From: an uncultured Desulfurococcaceae archaeon | Lineage (GTDB): Archaea > Thermoproteota > Thermoprotei_A > Sulfolobales > NBVN01 | Assembly: GCA_964482405.1 (NCBI GenBank) | Contig: CAYZXH010000003.1 | Coordinates: forward strand, 1 to 59,799 | Direction of reading: 5' to 3' | Length of the DNA: 59,799 nucleotides | In this document: positions 28,230-56,756 of the stretch, in pieces | Numbering within the stretch: position 1 is the first letter of the stretch | How the letters are laid out: each line of letters opens with the position of its first letter | Program-made: the position numbers and the translations under genes | Notes under the pieces: model-generated | Told to the model about the DNA's origin: nothing | Database searches by the model: none | What the model saw: only the letters and a program-made list of their open reading frames with translations

Positions 28230-28334
28230 GCGGGGGTGCCCGAGCCAGGTCAAAGGGGTCGGGCTCAGGTCCGAAAATGGTGGGAGCCCCGATGGCGTAG
28301 GCCTGCGTGGGTTCAAATCCCACCCCCCGCACCA
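28230..28334 (+). tRNA. tRNA-Leu(CAG) with 17-nt intron at 37/38 (28270-28286); CCA encoded
   Basis: Cloverleaf with long variable arm, GTTCAAATC; BHB: CUCA pairs with UGGG, bulges GGU and AGC. Confidence 0.95.
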
Positions 28335-43734: not shown

Positions 43735-44973
43735 TCACGATTGTCTAGTTAACTTAGCGTATTCGTTAAGAGCTTCAATCATCACATCTACCTCCTCCTG
43801 CGTGTTATATAGGTAGAAGCTTGCCCTAACAGAACCTAAGCTAGCTCCTATGTAATCATGGAGTGGTTGAGCGCAGTGGTACCCGCTTCTTACGGCAATG
43901 TTGTACGCGTCTAGGAACGAAGCTACTAGGTTAGGGTTGAAGTTGTTGAAATTAAAAGAAACGATACCTCCCCTCTTCTTAAGATCTGAAGGTCCATATA
44001 TAACGAGTTTTTCGCTAAGGTATGGATCATTTTTTATCTTACTCATGAAGTAGCTCACTAAGTGCTTTTCATGATCTTCCACGTTACTCATCCCCACACT
44101 CACCAAGTATTTGATGGCTTCCGCCAGACCTACAGCTCCAGCTATATGAGGTGTTCCAGCTTCAAAACTCCACGGAGGTTCTAGAAATTTCACTAAGAAC
44201 TCGCTGTTTCGGTATCTGACTTCTTCAACGATCCCGCCTCCAGTGAACGGGGTTTTAAATTCTTCTTGTAGTTCCTTCCTGAAGTATAGAACCCCTATCC
44301 CGGTAGGGCCAAGCATCTTATGCCCGCTGAAAGCCAGGAAATCCGCGTCGAGTTCTCTAACATCAATAGGCATGTGCGGAACGCTCTGAGCCCCGTCCAC
44401 GACAACTAACGCATCGTTTTCATGAGCAAGCTTGGACACCCTCCTTACATCAACTACCGTTCCTAGAACGTTGCTTACGTGTGTGATCGCAACAACCTTA
44501 GTTCTATTATCTACTAAATCAGCTAATCTATCGTAATTCAAGTCGTAGTCAGACCCTAAATCAACAACCCTAACTTCAAAACCTCTTAACTTGGAAAGAT
44601 ACACCCAAGGAAGTAGGTTGCTGTGATGTTCCATTATAGAAATAACCACATTATCCCCTCTATTAAGTCTTAGCCCCAACATGTAAGCGACCAGATTTAA
44701 TGAGTGTGTAGTACCGCTTGTGAAGATTATCTCCTCAACTCCGCGAGCTCTAATAAATTTACTGACGACCTCATGAGCTTCTTCATACAATTTACTAGCT
44801 TCTAAGGATAACTTATGGACACCCCTGTGTACATTGCTATTACTATACTCATAAAAGTTCTTCACTGCATTTATGACTTGAATAGGTTTCTGTGATGTGG
44901 CTGCGTTATCGAAGTATATGATACCTCTGGAATCAAGTATGGGGAAGTCCTTTCTAATCCTTCTAACGTCCAT
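43735..44973 (-). CDS. sufS: Group II cysteine desulfurase (SufS-like)
   Basis: YFDNAATSQKP, SGHKMLGPTGIG, RSGYHCAQP. Confidence 0.93.
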   Translation of the reverse strand: MDVRRIRKDFPILDSRGIIYFDNAATSQKPIQVINAVKNFYEYSNSNVHRGVHKLSLEASKLYEEAHEVVSKFIRARGVEEIIFTSGTTHSLNLVAYMLGLRLNRGDNVVISIMEHHSNLLPWVYLSKLRGFEVRVVDLGSDYDLNYDRLADLVDNRTKVVAITHVSNVLGTVVDVRRVSKLAHENDALVVVDGAQSVPHMPIDVRELDADFLAFSGHKMLGPTGIGVLYFRKELQEEFKTPFTGGGIVEEVRYRNSEFLVKFLEPPWSFEAGTPHIAGAVGLAEAIKYLVSVGMSNVEDHEKHLVSYFMSKIKNDPYLSEKLVIYGPSDLKKRGGIVSFNFNNFNPNLVASFLDAYNIAVRSGYHCAQPLHDYIGASLGSVRASFYLYNTQEEVDVMIEALNEYAKLTRQS

Positions 44974-45330
44974 TTCTAGTGAAACCCTTATTAATAACTA
45001 TTTTGAAGCAAATAAACTTGTTATTTTTATTTAAACACAGATACTCACGTTCCTGACTAGCATTTATTCCATAACATTCAGGTTTTAATTCTGTCGACTA
45101 GGGAAACTACTCAATTACGATAAAGCCCGCTAGAAGAGAAGCACAGATTGATGAGTAACTAAGTGTTAGAAGAGCTACGAGTACTATAGCTAAAAGTAAC
45201 TTACGGGAACATTAAAACCATTACCCATCTGTCAAAGGGATGGTTCCAGCTCTTTTAATTTTTCCGCGATGAAGCTCTAAGACTTGTAAGCTATTTTAGG
45301 ATTTTCGCGTAATTTTCTCGGGGCTAGTAA

Positions 45331-49136: not shown

Positions 49137-50342
49137 TCAGAGGTCTTGATATTCCACACATTTCTCTATTATCTCGATATATTTCAAGCCGTGATCCGGT
49201 AGTACAGCTATCACATCGCCTTCGCTTATTATGCCTTCCTCGATAGCGTTTGACACGGCTTTTAAGACGGCCCCGCTACTTAAACCTACTAGTATCCCGT
49301 CTTTTCTGGCTGTGTTGATTACTTCCTCAAGAGCTTCCTTGAGGGTCACCTCATATATCTTATCGATCTTAACTAAGTGAACCCATTTCATGCCTGATTC
49401 TACCCTTCTAATACCAGGTATCACCTCCCCCCTAGCCGGCTGAACACCTATTATCTTAACGTGATCACCGTACCTGTTTTTGAAGTAGTGAGATAAGGCT
49501 GACAGATGCCCTGACGTGCCGAGCCCTCCAACAATAGCCGCGAGCCTTAGCCCGGCACTCCTCACCTGTAGATCCAGTTCCTTCGCTGTATACCTTAAGT
49601 GTACTTCGAAGTTTTTATCATTTTCAAATTGATTGAGGTTGAGGGCTCCGTCCCTTAAAGCATCTTTCCTGACATCATCAATCATCTCAACAGTTATTGA
49701 GGCTCTCCCCCTCACGACCTCAGCTCCCATCAACCTGAAGATATAATCAACACATTGCTGGGCTGTTGAGGGTAAGTATAGACGTGCTTTAACCCCGGCG
49801 ACGTTCGAGAGCGCGGCCAAAGCCAGTCCCGTGTTAGTGGAAGTCGCCTCATAAATCGCTTTCAACCCATTAATACCCCCCAACCTGTCAACAGCTTCTT
49901 TCAACATATACCAGGCTATCCTATCCTTGATACTACAGCTGTATGGGTTATACCACTCTAACTTCCCCCAAACATTGAGTAGTCTGGTGGAAAGATAATT
50001 AAGTCTAGTTAGTGGGGTTGGCCAGTTACGGTAAAGTAGTTCTACAGTATCCTTGAAGACTCTCATAGGTTCCGGGTTAATGTCCTCATAAAAACCGAGT
50101 TCTTCAAGCGTTATGTTGGGGGGTCGCGTTATCTCGCCTTGAGGGACTACTGGAGCTTTAACACATCCTAGTCTCCTCAGGACATCGCAGAGCTCGCTGT
50201 TGTTAATTACCTTACCAGACTCGTCAACCACTATAGCGCTAGACACGTAATCACTTCTCAATAACTCGGCAGACATACTTAAGAAGTCTTCAAAACTCAC
50301 CTCACTACATCTAAGGTTGTCCAGCCTAACTAACTTGACCAA
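49137..50342 (-). CDS. O-phosphoserine sulfhydrylase (Aeropyrum-type cysteine synthase with extra N-domain)
   Basis: KLEWYNP..SIKDR, TSTN, NQF.ND.NF..H, LGTSGH, IPGIRRVE; closely resembles A. pernix OPSS as I recall it. Confidence 0.85.
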   Translation of the reverse strand: MVKLVRLDNLRCSEVSFEDFLSMSAELLRSDYVSSAIVVDESGKVINNSELCDVLRRLGCVKAPVVPQGEITRPPNITLEELGFYEDINPEPMRVFKDTVELLYRNWPTPLTRLNYLSTRLLNVWGKLEWYNPYSCSIKDRIAWYMLKEAVDRLGGINGLKAIYEATSTNTGLALAALSNVAGVKARLYLPSTAQQCVDYIFRLMGAEVVRGRASITVEMIDDVRKDALRDGALNLNQFENDKNFEVHLRYTAKELDLQVRSAGLRLAAIVGGLGTSGHLSALSHYFKNRYGDHVKIIGVQPARGEVIPGIRRVESGMKWVHLVKIDKIYEVTLKEALEEVINTARKDGILVGLSSGAVLKAVSNAIEEGIISEGDVIAVLPDHGLKYIEIIEKCVEYQDL

Positions 50343-50355
50343 GCTTGGGTCCCCG

Positions 50356-50370
50356 TAATAACATTGTTAT
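50356..50370. promoter_or_regulatory. Palindromic operator copy 1 (TAATAAC-ATT-GTTAT)
   Basis: 13 nt upstream of OPSS start, adjacent to TATA-like TTTTTAAAAA. Confidence 0.7.
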
Positions 50371-50413
50371 CGGTTTTTAAAAATCGTAGTCTTAGTTTCA
50401 TAGGGGGTATTGA

Positions 50414-51475
50414 GTGAGGTATAAAATCTCGAAACTACTTGAGGAATATTCAAGGCAGATCATAATTAAGGAAATCGGGGTTAAAGGGCAATTAAAGCTA
50501 CTGAATAGTAAAGTGGTTGTGATAGGCTGCGGCGCCACCGGAAGCACAGTAGCTGAATTACTAGTTAGGGCTGGCGTCGGGTTCATTAAGATAGTGGATA
50601 GAGACTTCGTTGAACTCAGTAACATACCCCGCTCTCACTTACACGTTGAGGGAGACGCTGACTCAGCGAAACCTAAGGCGTTGAGCTGTGCTGAAAAGTT
50701 AAGTAAGATTAACTCTTTCAGTAAGGTAGTTCCTCTAATCACGGAGGTCACCCAAAGCAATATAGAGGGTTTAATTTCTGACGCGGACGTGGTGATCGAC
50801 GCCACCGACAATTACGAAATCAGGTACTTGATAAACGACGCCGCCCTCAAGCTACGTAAGCCATGGATTCACATAGGTGTTGGGGGTTGGTACGGTCAGG
50901 TGATGTTCATTAAGCCCTACGAGACAGCCTGCTTCAGATGCCTCCTCCCCAAACCCCCGCCTGACGTCGGGGACGCTTGTAATGTGCTAGGGGTTATGAA
51001 CACCCTAGTATCTATGGTTGCGTCTATAGCCGTTAATGAAGTCATAAAATACCTGGTTGGCTTGGAAGTAGGGAATTACCTAATATTTGTTGACGCGCTG
51101 AGGACTCAGGTAAGTAAGTTTAAAGTGGCTAGAAACCCTGAATGCCCATCTTGTTCTTTAGGTAGGTTTGACTTCCTCAGTCAGAGAGAGTATCGGAGGG
51201 CTAAGGTGATATGTGGTTCTAATTCGATCCAAGTATATCCTTCAAGTCAGGTCTCACTAAAGTTTGAGGATCTTCAAGACCTAGATATTGAGGGAATCGA
51301 TGTTATCTCGATAACCTCCCACACATTGAGGGTGAGGATTGATGGGTATGAAGTCACCCTCTTCAACGACGGCCGAGCAATCGTAAGTAGTTTGACCGAC
51401 GAGAAAATCGCTCTTAAAGTTTACGAAAGCTTACTTTCGAAGCTTGGAAGCCGTGGTGAGCTTAATGAATACTGA
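50414..51475 (+). CDS. ThiF/MoeB-family E1 adenylyltransferase with C-terminal extension
   Basis: GCGATG, DRDFVELSN, DATDN, CFRC, CPSC. Confidence 0.9.
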   Translation: MRYKISKLLEEYSRQIIIKEIGVKGQLKLLNSKVVVIGCGATGSTVAELLVRAGVGFIKIVDRDFVELSNIPRSHLHVEGDADSAKPKALSCAEKLSKINSFSKVVPLITEVTQSNIEGLISDADVVIDATDNYEIRYLINDAALKLRKPWIHIGVGGWYGQVMFIKPYETACFRCLLPKPPPDVGDACNVLGVMNTLVSMVASIAVNEVIKYLVGLEVGNYLIFVDALRTQVSKFKVARNPECPSCSLGRFDFLSQREYRRAKVICGSNSIQVYPSSQVSLKFEDLQDLDIEGIDVISITSHTLRVRIDGYEVTLFNDGRAIVSSLTDEKIALKVYESLLSKLGSRGELNEY

Positions 51476-51689
51476 GGTGCTAGATATGAGGGGTCTTCAA
51501 TGCCCTGAACCACTAATAAGAATAGTTAAGGTTATTGAGGGGCTGAGTACCGGAGAAGTTGTAGACGTAGTAACGGATGTTCCGGAATGCGTTAACTTAA
51601 TAAAGGAAACTGTTGAAGGTTTTGAGTTAGGTCTTGTCGAAGTATTGAATAGGGGCGAGTACTTCGTTTTGAGGGTATTAGTTAGGTAA
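51465..51689 (+). CDS. tusA: TusA/SirA sulfur carrier
   Basis: LDMRGLQCPEP; GGTGA SD before ATG 51465. Confidence 0.88.
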   Translation: MNTEVLDMRGLQCPEPLIRIVKVIEGLSTGEVVDVVTDVPECVNLIKETVEGFELGLVEVLNRGEYFVLRVLVR

Positions 51690-51703
51690 GCTTTATTCAC
51701 TCC

Positions 51704-51718
51704 TAATAACATAGTTAT
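51704..51718. promoter_or_regulatory. Palindromic operator copy 2 (TAATAAC-ATA-GTTAT)
   Basis: 12 nt upstream of iscS start, downstream of CTTTATT. Confidence 0.7.
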
Positions 51719-51730
51719 GTGGTGTGAAAC

Positions 51731-52960
51731 GTGGACGTACAGGACTTACTGAGAGCTCACGGAGTACCCCCTAAAGAAGTTTATTTCGACTTGGAAAATT
51801 CCGGCTACGTACCGGACGAAGTAGTTAACGCCATGCTACCATATTTTAATAAACGTGGTTACGGGCATCCAGCCATAACACACAGGCTGGGGTGGGAAGC
51901 CTTAGACTTAATCATCAGCACTAAGGAGCTAGTAGCTAAGACTCTCAATCTTGCAAACCCCGAGAACTTGGTGTTCACTCACAGCGGGACCGAAGCAAAC
52001 AACCTAGCCATCCAAGGTTACCTAATAGCTAACAGGAATAAATTGAGAGGTAGGAAGGTGCTTGTGTCCTCTATAGAACACTTGAGTGTGATATTCCCTG
52101 CTCAATTCGTCAGTGAGTTGCTGGGTTTAGAAGTTATTAAGGTGCCTGTAGACGAGGAAGGTTTCGTAGATCCTGAAGTGCTCAAGTACTACGTGGATAA
52201 AGATGTGGGCTTAGTAAGCATACAGCTAGTGAATCATGAGATAGGCACGATACAAAAGTTAAGAGAATTAATTGAGGTGGTTAGGGATAAGAACCCTGAC
52301 GTAGTTTTCCACACAGACGCTAGTGACGCCTACGGGAAAGTCAGGATAGATTTAAGAGATCTTGACGTAGATATGATGACTTTAAGTAGTCACAAGATTC
52401 ACGGTCCTAGGGGTGTTGGGGTTCTTTACGTGAGGGATGGCGTGAAGATAGAGCCTATTCTTAGGGGACAATTAAGTGTTGAGAAGCTGTGGCCTGGGGT
52501 GGAGTTGACGCCCTTAATAGCTGGGTTCAAAAAAGCTGTAGAGTTAGCTTTCAATAACTTCGAAAGGAACGTTAAGTACCTTACCTCATTAAGAGATAAA
52601 CTACTCAACGGTATCTTAAATTCCGTTAGTGACGTCGTGCTCAACGGCCCCTCAGACGGCAAGAGAGCTCCCGATAATGTTAACATAGCCTTTAAGTATG
52701 TGGAGGGTGAGGCTCTGACAATAGAGTTAAGCAGTTACGGGGTTTACGTATCGAGCGGTAGTGCCTGCAGTTCAAGATTCTTAGAACCTAGTCACGTACT
52801 CCTAGCTATAGGTAGGGAGTATGAGTTAGCTCACGGGAGCATATTATTTAAGGTGTCAAGATATCATAAAGAAGAAGACATCGACTACGCTCTCGAAGTC
52901 TTGCCTAAAGCTGTTGATAGGTTGAGAACGCTCAGCCCGTTAACTCCTAGAAGAGCTTAA
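51731..52960 (+). CDS. iscS: Group I cysteine desulfurase (IscS/NifS)
   Basis: SGTEANN, IEH, SSHKIHGPRGVG, SSGSACSS. Confidence 0.93.
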   Translation: MDVQDLLRAHGVPPKEVYFDLENSGYVPDEVVNAMLPYFNKRGYGHPAITHRLGWEALDLIISTKELVAKTLNLANPENLVFTHSGTEANNLAIQGYLIANRNKLRGRKVLVSSIEHLSVIFPAQFVSELLGLEVIKVPVDEEGFVDPEVLKYYVDKDVGLVSIQLVNHEIGTIQKLRELIEVVRDKNPDVVFHTDASDAYGKVRIDLRDLDVDMMTLSSHKIHGPRGVGVLYVRDGVKIEPILRGQLSVEKLWPGVELTPLIAGFKKAVELAFNNFERNVKYLTSLRDKLLNGILNSVSDVVLNGPSDGKRAPDNVNIAFKYVEGEALTIELSSYGVYVSSGSACSSRFLEPSHVLLAIGREYELAHGSILFKVSRYHKEEDIDYALEVLPKAVDRLRTLSPLTPRRA

Positions 52961-52966
52961 AAGCTA

Positions 52967-52981
52967 TAATAACAAAGTTAT
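52967..52981. promoter_or_regulatory. Palindromic operator copy 3 (TAATAAC-AAA-GTTAT)
   Basis: 14 nt upstream of iscU start, downstream of CTTAAAAG. Confidence 0.7.
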
Positions 52982-52995
52982 ATAGGGTAAGGGAA

Positions 52996-53511
52996 ATGAG
53001 TTCGAGAATACCTCTCCCATACTCTCCCGTAGTACTTGAGTACTTCAGAAATCCTAAGAACGTAGGACGCATGGAGAACGCCACCGTTCAATCCACTGCC
53101 GGAAGCCCAGCATGCGGCGACATGATTAGACTGTACCTTAGGATCGAAGATGATCTAATAGTGGAGGCTACCTTCGAGAGTTATGGTTGCGCAGCTAACA
53201 TAGCTGCTGCCAGCATACTCACGGAGATGATTAAGGGTAAGACCTTGAAAGAAGCTTGGGAGATTAAGTGGAACGATATTTCAGATAAGTTAGGAGGTTT
53301 ACCTCCTATAAAGTATCATTGTAGTATACTTGCGGTTGGAGCTCTAAAGAGAGCTATAAGAGCATACTATGACGAGGTAAGGAAAGCAGTGCCGAACTGG
53401 CTACCTAAGAATTTAAGCACCGAGGAAAAACAAACTATGGAAGAGGAGGAACTGATAGAGAGGATGTATAACAGAATTCCAAAATCGTCAGGTGCTGAGA
53501 GTGGTAAGTGA
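52996..53511 (+). CDS. iscU: IscU/NifU Fe-S scaffold
   Basis: YS....YFRNPKN, ACGD, YGCA, PPIKYHC. Confidence 0.94.
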   Translation: MSSRIPLPYSPVVLEYFRNPKNVGRMENATVQSTAGSPACGDMIRLYLRIEDDLIVEATFESYGCAANIAAASILTEMIKGKTLKEAWEIKWNDISDKLGGLPPIKYHCSILAVGALKRAIRAYYDEVRKAVPNWLPKNLSTEEKQTMEEEELIERMYNRIPKSSGAESGK

Positions 53512-53737
53512 GCAAGTTTTCGACCTCAGATTAAACAGGATTGGTGGGTGTACGGGGGACCCCGTGTTAAGATTACTTACTTTAATAAATGAAGGTCTCG
53601 GCGACTTCAAGATAATAGCTCAGAAGAAAGTCCTACCGCCAGAAGTTCTTCAGGCAATACTTAAGAAAAAAGGTTATAGGATGGAAATCTTAGGTGAGGA
53701 GGAAGGAGACGCTTTCTTGATAAGAATCCACAAATAA
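53492..53737 (+). CDS. Divergent TusA-like protein
   Basis: FDLR...GCTGDP; C-terminal GY..E....FLIRI pattern typical of the TusA fold; start may be GTG 53501. Confidence 0.6.
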   Translation: MLRVVSEQVFDLRLNRIGGCTGDPVLRLLTLINEGLGDFKIIAQKKVLPPEVLQAILKKKGYRMEILGEEEGDAFLIRIHK

Positions 53738-53839
53738 CAACACACTGTCCTTACATCTGAGAGTTTTGAGAAAAGGTCCTAAGTGACTGGGAGGTGGATG
53801 AGCTTCCGTAGCCAAGGGGCTGTGGATTGGATAGCGTTT

Positions 53840-53892
53840 GCTACCCGCCATGCAAGCACACAAGCAATCACAAAGCATGGCGGGTGGTTCAT
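53840..53892 (+). mobile_element. 14-bp hairpin ending GGCGGGTGGTTCAT; possible IS200/IS605 right-end remnant
   Basis: GCTACCCGCCATGC / GCATGGCGGGTGGT with two G-U pairs on the + strand. Confidence 0.35.
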
Positions 53893-54149
53893 TACGCTTC
53901 CTCCGTGCCTCCTCACCTACTGAGAAGCGGTTAGGTTTTAAGTTCTGATTTTGTTTGCTGTCATGAAATAGCTCGCCTAGGCGATGAGGGCAGTGTTCCA
54001 GGCCCGGGCTAGTCTAGCAGGCAATAAGCTTCACTCAACACGGGAGATTGGAGGTCTGCAAGCTTTAAACATTTTCTGAAGCACAAGCTGGTTAGGTTAG
54101 AATTCGCTTCTGGTCTAAACTTTATTACCTAGTATTAATTGAGATTTCG

Positions 54150-55177: not shown

Positions 55178-56380
55178 TTGTTGTTAAGTGGTGTTAGGGA
55201 CTACTTCCCGTCAATTAAGAGATTTCGCGCGTACTTAAACACCGCGTCCACGGGCCTCACCCCGATTAACGTCTACGAAACCCTACGCGGAGTCTTAAAC
55301 ATGATTTACGAGGGTTCCGTTACCGAGGACTTGCTGGAGGACTATGTTGCGAGGGGAAGGAAGGAGGTAGCTAGGTTGGTAGGTGCGGAGACTTCGGAAA
55401 TCGCGTTCACTGTGCAAACTACTGAGGGATTGAAGAACGTCTTAAGATCACTTAATTTAAGAACCGGTGACGTGGTTCTCGGGCTAGACCTAGACTTCCC
55501 CACAATCACATCACTTATTAAGTCCTTGTGCGTGGTTAGGGGGTGTGATATTAGGGTAGCTGAGGGTAAGGGAATTTACGAAGTAGAGGATCTGGAAAAA
55601 ATAGTTGATGATTCCGTCAAGGTTGCTGTGGTATCTTCCGTTCAGTGGATTAGTGGGTGGAGGATTAACTTGAGAGAGTTTTCCAACATACTCCATGAAC
55701 ACGGCGCTCTCCTAATAGTTGACGGGGTTCAACACGTGGGTGCCCTAAAGCTTGACGTGGCTACCGAAGACGTCGATGTTCTGTGTGTTGGTGGTGAGAA
55801 GTGGATGCTAAGCCCGTACGTCGGCTCCGGCTTCATGTACGTGAGGAGGGAGTTGCTTGAGGAATTGGATCCTTTTCCGTACGGTATATTGAATAGGGAA
55901 GAGCCAAGAGGTGGTTGGGGCAATTATTGGCCAGACCCGGACAAAGACGTGTGGTCACTCCCTCAAGTCTCGAGAACTGCTCTAAAGTTTGAATGGGGTG
56001 GCGGGAGGCCGTATATATCGATAATTGCTTTGTATGAAGCGGCTCGTCTCATAAATAACGTGGGTATAGAGAATATCGAGAGCCATGTCTTAAGTATTAA
56101 GAGGTATCTGTACGAAAGACTGTTTAGCGAGGGTTACGCTGTTTACGGCTATAGTGATGAGGTGATGCATTGGTCCGGCATAACCTTAGTTAAGACTAGG
56201 CTGAACAGGATGAGGGAACTCAATATAGTTGAGGGGCTACGTAAGAGAGGCGTGATGGTTTCCTACAGGGGTGCCTCAGGAGTGTCTGGAATCAGGGTAT
56301 CCACGCACCTCTACAACACGAGGGATGACGTAGATGTGTTAATAGACGAATTAAATAAGCTTAGGGCTTTGAACGCATGA
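55178..56380 (+). CDS. Class V PLP enzyme (desulfurase/lyase-like, lacking the catalytic Cys loop)
   Basis: YLNTASTG, DGVQ, GEKWM, IRVSTHLYN; no RxGxHC or SGSAC motif. Confidence 0.85.
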   Translation: MLLSGVRDYFPSIKRFRAYLNTASTGLTPINVYETLRGVLNMIYEGSVTEDLLEDYVARGRKEVARLVGAETSEIAFTVQTTEGLKNVLRSLNLRTGDVVLGLDLDFPTITSLIKSLCVVRGCDIRVAEGKGIYEVEDLEKIVDDSVKVAVVSSVQWISGWRINLREFSNILHEHGALLIVDGVQHVGALKLDVATEDVDVLCVGGEKWMLSPYVGSGFMYVRRELLEELDPFPYGILNREEPRGGWGNYWPDPDKDVWSLPQVSRTALKFEWGGGRPYISIIALYEAARLINNVGIENIESHVLSIKRYLYERLFSEGYAVYGYSDEVMHWSGITLVKTRLNRMRELNIVEGLRKRGVMVSYRGASGVSGIRVSTHLYNTRDDVDVLIDELNKLRALNA

Positions 56381-56432: not shown

Positions 56433-56756
56433 TCAAGCTCGGCCAGAACTCTCTATCTTGAATGCTGGAGGGCTTATTCTCTCAGACTTACACCTAGGAC
56501 ATTTACTCGGTTTCCTAGGTTTTTCGAGGTCTTTGAACACGTAGCCGCAGGACCTGCAAATAGGTGGTATCATGATTAGTACGCGCTCGTTTTTGTAGGT
56601 TCTCCTAACGCTCTTCGCTATGTGTTCTAGGTGTTCGTATACTTCCTTAGGAGTTGCTTTAAGGTTTAGTAAGGTGATTATTTCCTCGACGGTTAGCGGG
56701 TTTTCGGTCTTGGTTAAGAGCTCCATTATTTTCTCTCTGGTTGTTTGTTGAGACAA
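56433..56756 (-). CDS. wHTH + Zn-ribbon transcriptional regulator (COG3357-like)
   Basis: TREKI, VYEHLEHIAKS, PPICRSCG...PSKCPRCKSERI. Confidence 0.88.
   Translation of the reverse strand: MSQQTTREKIMELLTKTENPLTVEEIITLLNLKATPKEVYEHLEHIAKSVRRTYKNERVLIMIPPICRSCGYVFKDLEKPRKPSKCPRCKSERISPPAFKIESSGRA

Follow-up and report, generated by a model that had tools for sequence, protein, structure and literature searches.

Is a short palindrome that recurs in an archaeal gene cluster for cysteine and iron-sulfur (Fe-S) cluster synthesis an operator, and if so, which protein reads it? The question is raised by a stretch of 59,799 nucleotides (nt) from an uncultured Desulfurococcaceae archaeon (contig CAYZXH010000003.1, positions 1 to 59,799; hereafter the window), for which the initial annotation had reported a 15-mer, TAATAAC-N3-GTTAT, at 50356, 51704 and 52967, 12-14 nt before the start codons of a gene for an OPS sulfhydrylase (OPSS), of iscS and of iscU, and each time behind a TATA-like box; all of this was re-found. 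Comparison with related genomes indicates that the palindrome is a true, widely conserved operator, because it is kept at the same promoters in other genera, other families and one other order. We consider it probable that it is the operator of a small dimeric helix-turn-helix (HTH) regulator, most likely a protein here called HTH2, set over genes for cysteine supply and ISC assembly. The region from 49.1 to 53.5 kb of the window comprises five genes, whose families were called by Pfam, and these are given here with the sites and with the more distant sufS-like gene (scores are those of the position weight matrix, PWM, described below).

43735-44973, minus strand: sufS-like gene
45012-45024, minus strand: weaker sufS site ATAACAAGTTTAT, one mismatch, 38 nt ahead of the start of the sufS-like gene and overlapping the TATA-like TTTAAATAAA
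49137-50342, minus strand: OPSS-like gene, pyridoxal-phosphate-dependent and cysteine-synthase-like, 401 amino acids (aa), TTG start at 50342 (Pfam PALP, E 6e-48)
50356..50372: operator O1, 13-mer ATAACATTGTTAT at 50358-50370, PWM 20.2 bits, second best of the genome
50374-50383: palindromic TATA-like box TTTTTAAAAA, between O1 and thiF
50414-51475, plus strand: ThiF/MoeB-family adenylyltransferase, 353 aa (Pfam ThiF, E 9.4e-67)
51444-51689, plus strand: TusA-like sulfur carrier, open reading frame (ORF) of 81 aa, start uncertain (Pfam TusA, E 2.5e-13)
51691-51698, plus strand: TATA-like box CTTTATTC, before iscS
51704..51720: operator O2, 13-mer ATAACATAGTTAT at 51706-51718, PWM 18.5 bits, 12 nt upstream of the start of iscS
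51731-52960, plus strand: iscS, cysteine desulfurase, 409 aa, GTG start at 51731 (Pfam Aminotran_5, E 3.1e-61)
52956-52963, plus strand: TATA-like box CTTAAAAG, overlapping the iscS stop codon
52967..52983: operator O3, 13-mer ATAACAAAGTTAT at 52969-52981, PWM 21.0 bits, best of the genome
52996-53511, plus strand: iscU scaffold, 171 aa, ATG start at 52996 (Pfam NifU_N, E 1.2e-39)

The exact core ATAAC-N3-GTTAT lies at 50358-50370, 51706-51718 and 52969-52981, the 15-mer positions being those of the core with its TA prefix, and the operators end 13, 12 and 14 nt before the start codons of the OPSS-like gene, iscS and iscU, respectively. The start assigned to the OPSS-like gene is confirmed by a relative that has ATG in the corresponding position. 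In gene orientation, a TATA-like box is found just upstream of each of O1, O2 and O3. O1 is common to the divergent OPSS-like and ThiF-family genes and, seen from the thiF side, lies directly upstream of the AT-rich box, the palindromic TTTTTAAAAA, which could serve both promoters. Internal promoters for iscS and iscU inside an operon are plausible because TATA-like boxes occur in the 41-nt and 35-nt intergenic gaps that precede these genes. A one-mismatch copy and a TAATAAC half-site (44992-44998) that had been noted before the sufS-like gene are both present. The sufS variant is identical in three close relatives, and a similar ATAAC-TAA-TTTAT is found in two more; it falls below the listed top of the PWM scan of the genome, and is probably a weaker operator that is kept among the close relatives examined.

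The frequency of the palindrome was compared with chance in the window and in the source assembly (G000; 1,459,111 nt in 66 contigs, 46 % G+C), where our ORF map leaves 126,916 nt of intergenic DNA and expectations were taken from 200 first-order Markov simulations. Ten matches with no more than one mismatch were found in the window against 1.95 expected, a number reached by none of 100 shuffles. There are only three copies of the exact 13-mer in the whole assembly, all of them inside this 2.6-kb cluster, and three intergenic copies compare with 0.27 expected (1 of 200 simulations reached three). A genome-wide scan had been proposed as a check on the motif, and on this evidence the exact form is confined to the cluster and exceeds the intergenic expectation. 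The shorter core TAAC-N3-GTTA is found 16 times between genes (expected 4.26; no simulation of 200 was as high), whereas the same half-sites with a spacer of two (5 vs 4.25) or four (3 vs 3.83) nucleotides are at expectation, as is the inverted order GTTA-N3-TAAC (2 vs 4.04), which is the arrangement that the initial annotation had set apart as that of the sulfur regulator SurR. Hence, the geometry of the operator is specific in both spacing and orientation.

Conservation was assessed in 41 related genomes from the same genus, family and order. Orthologues of iscS (E below 1e-140) are present in 22 of them, and at least one exact 13-mer was found in 14 of the 20 iscS loci retrieved, at positions immediately preceding iscS, iscU or the gene that opens the operon. 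For iscU, 12/17 upstream regions contain the exact core, and for iscS 7/20 do so, compared with a background of 29 of the 1461 upstream regions of the source assembly (2.0 %). For OPSS orthologues, the exact core is found upstream in 8/21 loci and a site with one mismatch in three more. Conservation at the promoters of iscS, iscU and OPSS orthologues, which the initial annotation had named as a further check, extends across genera, families and another order. In an anchored alignment of these promoters, the TATA-like box is 8-12 nt upstream of the operator, which is followed by a Shine-Dalgarno-like GGTG or GGAGG and then by the start codon, 8-26 nt downstream of the operator. The position between TATA-like box and start codon, pointed out earlier as the usual place for archaeal repressors, is seen in the relatives also.

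A relaxed pattern, WTAAC-N3-GTTAW, has 25 matches in the source assembly, 13 of them intergenic, and among these are sites before a DUF59/SufT-like gene, a gene for an Mrp/ApbC carrier and one for the lipoyl synthase LipS2. Divergent from the DUF59 gene is a gene for an HTH protein of 133 aa (HTH16), which gave entry to a family of archaeal HTH proteins of about 130 aa. No Pfam or NCBIfam model matches this family above its cut-off, and in the sources its members are named only ‘transcriptional regulator’ or ‘hypothetical’; a family profile gave generic HTH matches and no solved family structure in a search of the PDB. With a threshold of E 0.001, a full HMMER search recovered 182 representative clusters, among them proteins of about 300 aa. 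The source assembly holds five paralogues, which all match one another and fall in one tree:

G000:C2:196-564, minus strand: HTH2, 122 aa, outside the window
G000:C38:9318-9632: HTH38, sister paralogue of HTH2
G000:C16:23179-23580: HTH16, 133 aa, adjoining the DUF59 gene
G000:C22:17448-18383: ThiN-fused ThiR-like protein, 311 aa (ThiN PF10120, E 3.6e-46), the sole paralogue with ThiN
G000:C43:491-2185: two-gene operon of HTH43 and a DUF438-hemerythrin-PAS protein

In a tree of 82 family members, the HTH2 clade (23 rows) has support of 94/85 and the HTH16 clade support of 100/99. The HTH segments are similar across all five paralogues, and the recognition helices are very similar. HTH16, whose gene diverges from the DUF59 gene, was for that reason the first candidate for the regulator of the cluster but was rejected, because its orthologues are confined to the genus of the window and one neighbouring genus and the sites of the type found in the cluster (class A, below) reach much further. 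HTH43 and its DUF438-hemerythrin-PAS partner form a two-gene unit that is kept in many relatives and may be an O2-, NO- or iron-sensing pair.

The most likely regulator of the class A operator is HTH2. The initial annotation had left the regulator without a name and had suggested a protein encoded nearby; the sequence evidence now narrows the choice to this 122-aa protein encoded outside the window, and the nearby candidate is not supported. The HTH2 promoter in the source assembly has the layout of O1-O3, namely TATTTAAG, 10 nt, ATAATTAAGTTAT, 13 nt and ATG, and in the HTH2 clade 18 of 23 genes show the core, one mismatch being allowed, in the 126 nt upstream. Outside the genus of the window, 9 of 14 HTH2 genes have iscS, tusA, thiF, OPSS or sufS no more than 1.5 kb away. 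Among the arrangements are operons of the order iscS-tusA-HTH2, HTH2 genes immediately upstream of iscS or sufS, and HTH2 genes that diverge from OPSS or come after it. In a wider search, an HTH2-clade profile was run against 301 genomes of the class, and from the strong matches beyond the family of the window (about E 1e-28 or better) 20 far loci were hand-picked, with their context unseen and so as to sample many families. These come from seven other families, including one of a different order, and 5.4 kb around each gene was taken (101,199 nt in total). Ten of the 20 HTH2 genes are within 2.5 kb of isc, suf, OPSS, tusA or thiF genes. The same DNA contains 26 exact cores, of which 20, in 15 loci, are the exact ATAAC-N3-GTTAT, compared with one site of the second class described below and with 2, 0 and 0 matches to three control patterns. 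The sites stand before HTH2 itself, iscS, iscU, OPSS and sufS.

The phyletic pattern is concordant. Among the 41 genomes, 18 have iscS and HTH2, four have iscS only, three have HTH2 only and 16 have neither. The iscS loci without a site are precisely those of three iscS-only genomes, G014, G028 and G035, and a profile search of these three genomes found no HTH2.

The HTH2 protein has three conserved cysteines. Cys5, followed by Glu6, is at the N terminus and a C-x2-C motif is at 91/94, and C5, R54, C91 and C94 are invariant in 42 HTH2 and HTH38 sequences, with E6 nearly so; within the HTH2 clade E6, Q32, Q43 and N47 are invariant also. Members of the HTH16, HTH43 and ThiR-like N-domain clades do not have the N-terminal Cys and, in front of the C-x2-C common to all, possess one more helix that bears C-x2-H. 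With its three Cys and a possible acidic fourth ligand, the site of HTH2 is reminiscent of regulators that bind clusters. A Pfam scan of HTH2 gave only HTH_3 (20.3 bits, cut-off 23) and HTH_24 (17.5 bits, cut-off 21.9), both below cut-off, and neither Rrf2 nor ThiN. An AlphaFold2 model (pLDDT 88.7) is all-helical, with seven helices. Foldseek found no match to this model in the PDB at E 0.001 or better, the best being XRE-like HTH proteins at E 0.39 or worse, and in a wide search with VIA-align the best matches (Z 6.1) were unrelated helical proteins, from which neither a new fold nor a relation follows. The homodimer prediction scored 0.02, a value that has no bearing for or against a dimer.

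The sites fall into two classes. Those at iscS, iscU, OPSS and HTH2 are of the form aATAAC-N3-GTTATt (class A) and end in GTTAT in 44/54 cases, and those at Mrp, DUF59 and HTH38 have the form TTAAC-N3-GTTAA (class B) and end in GTTAA in 47/54. Class B operators directly adjoin the TATA-like box on its upstream side. In the source assembly they are represented by five sites:

G000:C16:23656-23668: before the DUF59/SufT-like gene
G000:C30:2418-2430: before the Mrp/ApbC gene
G000:C10:29011-29023: before LipS2
G000:C2:17751-17767: before a radical-SAM/HMPTM-like gene
G000:C38:9662-9678: before HTH38

Genomes that lack both HTH2 and iscS still have class B sites, with the exact core before Mrp in 11/30 loci and before DUF59 in 10/30, and the HTH38 gene has a class B site in its own promoter in about 20/27. 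It appears from these sequences that HTH38 uses the class B operator at genes for Fe-S cluster delivery and use and at its own gene. PWMs were built after 11 or 12 weak rows, from genomes without the regulator or with a broken core, had been dropped. With the class A matrix the best-scoring sites of the source assembly rank in the order iscU, OPSS/thiF, ECF ATPase, HTH2, peroxiredoxin, MFS transporter, TRASH-CopA operon and iscS, and with the class B matrix the intergenic order is DUF59, Mrp, an unknown 161-aa gene, HTH38, radical-SAM/HMPTM-like gene and LipS2. The 15-mer of the window is therefore a class A operator, and the two classes together look like two related regulons.

High-scoring class A-like sites are also found at G000:C55:3255-3271, C50:7487-7503, C10:1525-1541 and C11:30406-30422, before genes for a peroxiredoxin, a TRASH-domain protein with a Cu-ATPase, an MFS transporter and a NuoC/D-like subunit, respectively, and may represent a wider regulon or chance. 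The ECF transporter, YkoEDC-like by Pfam, adjoins the ThiR-like gene (G000:C22:17448-21190), and the site in its promoter is possibly an operator of the ThiR-like protein that is very close to class A in sequence.

In the mechanism that we propose, a dimer of HTH2 would occupy the operator between the TATA box and the start of transcription and, to judge from this position, block recruitment of the polymerase. The OPSS-like gene, iscS, iscU and the HTH2 gene itself would each be repressed from its own promoter, and the single site O1 would act on the OPSS promoter from the downstream side and on that of thiF from the upstream side. By analogy with the bacterial regulators IscR and SufR, the cysteines of HTH2 might hold an Fe-S cluster, or they might sense the persulfide or thiol state. 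If the loaded protein is the form that binds DNA, a shortage of clusters would derepress the pathway, giving a negative feedback loop. Of the earlier claim that a dimeric regulator controls the cluster, the dyad operator that ties OPSS to the ISC genes stands, and the extension to sufS is reduced to a weaker copy that is conserved only among the close relatives examined. A more far-reaching reading, again by analogy, can be put forward only tentatively: HTH2 and HTH38 may belong to a new archaeal family of transcription factors that sense Fe-S clusters or persulfide and are built on a ThiR-type DNA-binding domain. In the corresponding circuit of two tiers, HTH2 would govern the supply of cysteine and ISC synthesis via ATAAC-N3-GTTAT between TATA box and transcription start, HTH38 would govern cluster delivery and the radical-SAM consumers via TTAAC-N3-GTTAA at the edge of the B recognition element and TATA box, and a single outer base pair would tell the two operators apart.

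Several observations weigh against HTH2, or against the use made of its cysteines. HTH2 is assigned as the regulator by association only, and the placement between TATA box and transcription start, like the internal promoters, is read from sequence alone. The gene map behind the intergenic counts is a crude ORF heuristic of our own (1506 ORFs, 91.6 % coding), and the co-occurrence tests covered this HTH family and one further protein, the PF0610-like protein considered below. Within the genus of the window HTH2 adjoins the cluster in 0/9 loci, and its own site has TAAT rather than TAAC in one half. A relative in the same genus, G008, which is the fourth of the iscS-only genomes, has all three sites, and HTH2 was not found there by profile search; an assembly gap is likely, because the HTH2 gene lies at the edge of a contig, no more than 700 nt from its end, in G000, G003 and G009. 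The ECF promoter site, ATAAT-ATA-GTTAT, scores 20.1 bits and is kept in the genus, and similar sites are found in two genomes without HTH2. As this site and that of HTH2 share the TAAT half and the HTH segments are similar, shared or competing binding by paralogues is possible. For the cysteines, a structural zinc site is an equally possible interpretation of the sequences, and the sister clades have a Cys3His set at another place.

One alternative is that the operator is real and bound by the ThiR-like protein or by HTH38 instead of HTH2, or by several paralogues, which we regard as unlikely. In its favour, the HTH segments are alike in all five paralogues, which also have the core TAAC-N3-GTTA in common; the class A-like ECF site stands beside the ThiR-like gene; and ThiF, TusA and IscS are linked to thiamine and thio-cofactor chemistry. 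However, genes for the ThiR-like protein and HTH38 are found in most of the 41 genomes, including G028 and G035, which have iscS and no sites, and genomes without iscS. Because these two genes are nearly ubiquitous and occur also where sites are missing, they do not predict the site and HTH2 does. In addition, the promoters of HTH38, Mrp and DUF59 carry the other flank, GTTAA, in 47/54 sites, and the ThiR-like gene of the source assembly has no site upstream. A regulator from an unrelated family, with HTH2 merely co-regulated, is a little less probable again. The narrow range of proteins covered by the co-occurrence tests leaves room for it, and a site in the HTH2 promoter would also fit control by another factor; yet HTH2 is by sequence a DNA-binding protein, it is the only regulator-like gene that recurs in the clusters (9/14 and 10/20 loci, counting our own query proteins only), and the site and the HTH2 gene have been lost together in three lineages.

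Two further explanations have very little in their favour. The initial annotation had suggested as regulator a PF0610-like protein with a winged HTH and a zinc ribbon, encoded at 56433-56756. Its gene is 3.5 kb from iscU and adjoins a third cysteine-desulfurase-like gene, and its winged HTH and Cys4 ribbon would suit the role, but over the 41 genomes protein and operator are mismatched both ways. The protein is present in 26/41 relatives and was not found in the operator-bearing genomes G005, G009, G013, G015, G016, G019 and G024, it was found in nine genomes without iscS and HTH2, and the 82-nt gap upstream of its gene contains no palindrome; the suggestion is thus highly improbable. Hardly better placed is the possibility that there is no protein operator, the palindrome being either a core promoter feature, with its TAATAA half as the TATA box of leaderless genes, or an RNA hairpin in the 5'-untranslated region. 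The TAATAA half is indeed TATA-like and lies about 26 nt before the start codons of iscS and iscU, and the palindrome can fold as RNA (-3.5 to -8.8 kcal/mol at 37 °C). Against this, the genome has just the three exact copies, the dyad and its N3 spacing are strictly kept while the other spacings and the inverted order are unenriched, separate TATA-like boxes lie upstream, and the OPSS site is in the opposite orientation. The hairpins consist of five A/U-rich pairs, which is weak for a thermophile (thermophily being inferred from the names of relatives), and the half-sites stay the same in sequence, without compensatory change or covariation. The absence of compensatory changes and the weakness of the hairpin fit a DNA site bound by protein.

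The reading in which HTH2 binds class A resembles known systems in part. IscR is a small dimeric bacterial regulator of the Rrf2 family with a set of three Cys ligands, and is autoregulated, with a palindromic operator over the promoter of iscS and iscU. HTH2 shares with it the three Cys, a site in its own promoter, iscS and iscU as probable targets and the proposed feedback by clusters. In contrast to IscR, no Rrf2 domain was found in HTH2 and its seven-helix model is of another fold class; one of its Cys is N-terminal and the other two form a C-x2-C near the C terminus; the operator has another sequence; and the promoters are archaeal, of the TATA/TFB type. SurR is an ArsR-type winged HTH protein with a CxxC motif that governs the sulfur response in the Thermococcales. 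The two have in common that they are archaeal regulators linked to redox or sulfur and that their short dyads are made of the same letters around an N3 spacer, but the half-site order is GTT-N3-AAC for SurR and AAC-N3-GTT here, and HTH2 is not of the SurR family. Rodionov and colleagues are said to have described ThiR in 2017 as the archaeal thiamine regulator, composed of an HTH and a ThiN domain. Its N-terminal HTH domain is homologous to HTH2, and the likely ThiR-like site has the same dyad geometry; unlike ThiR, HTH2 has no ThiN effector domain, belongs to another clade with another Cys pattern, and is associated with isc and cysteine genes rather than with those for thiamine. Finally, SufR is a bacterial repressor of Fe-S assembly genes with a DeoR-type HTH and a Cys-ligated cluster, for which sensing of cluster status via cysteines is proposed (PMC6034842). 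SufR differs from HTH2 in belonging to an unrelated family of another size and in targeting suf operons, whereas the genes here are those of the ISC system and OPSS.

A literature search that covered the motif, archaeal Fe-S regulators and ThiR found no paper on this operator or on a protein of the HTH2 type, and nothing on the regulation of archaeal Fe-S cluster biogenesis. Within the reach of that search, neither the operator nor the protein family nor the division into two classes has been described, and the mode of working is familiar from IscR and SufR. Operator and regulon are now defined and a candidate gene is named, so that the proposal is directly testable, and it would offer a first handle on the control of Fe-S supply in archaea of this kind, which depend heavily on Fe-S enzymes. 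A second, related pair of operator and regulator is also indicated. If the cysteine triad does bind a cluster, the logic of IscR would have been invented independently on a different scaffold. The result could transfer to many genomes, because unannotated look-alikes of the family are found in several archaeal phyla.

Some minor features of the window were recorded. There are three class-V aminotransferase paralogues in 13 kb, namely the sufS-like gene (43735-44973), iscS (51731-52960) and a third, cysteine-desulfurase-like gene:

55178-56380: third class-V aminotransferase, cysteine-desulfurase-like

Only the first two have a class A-type site upstream. The end of iscU is overlapped by an ORF of 81 aa at 53492-53737 that matches no family; in a distant genome, L230, a weak homologue of it (32 %, E 5.9e-07) is flanked by HTH2 and sufS. 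Between this ORF and a rubrerythrin-like gene is a G+C-rich stretch of about 410 nt with no long ORF (53738-54149), in which no Rfam family reached its gathering score. A scan for bacterial sigma-70 promoters and terminators gave nothing above chance, the models being bacterial and not meaningful for an archaeon. An Rfam scan of the whole window detected tRNA only, and the tRNA match at 28230-28331, being 102 nt long, probably carries an intron.

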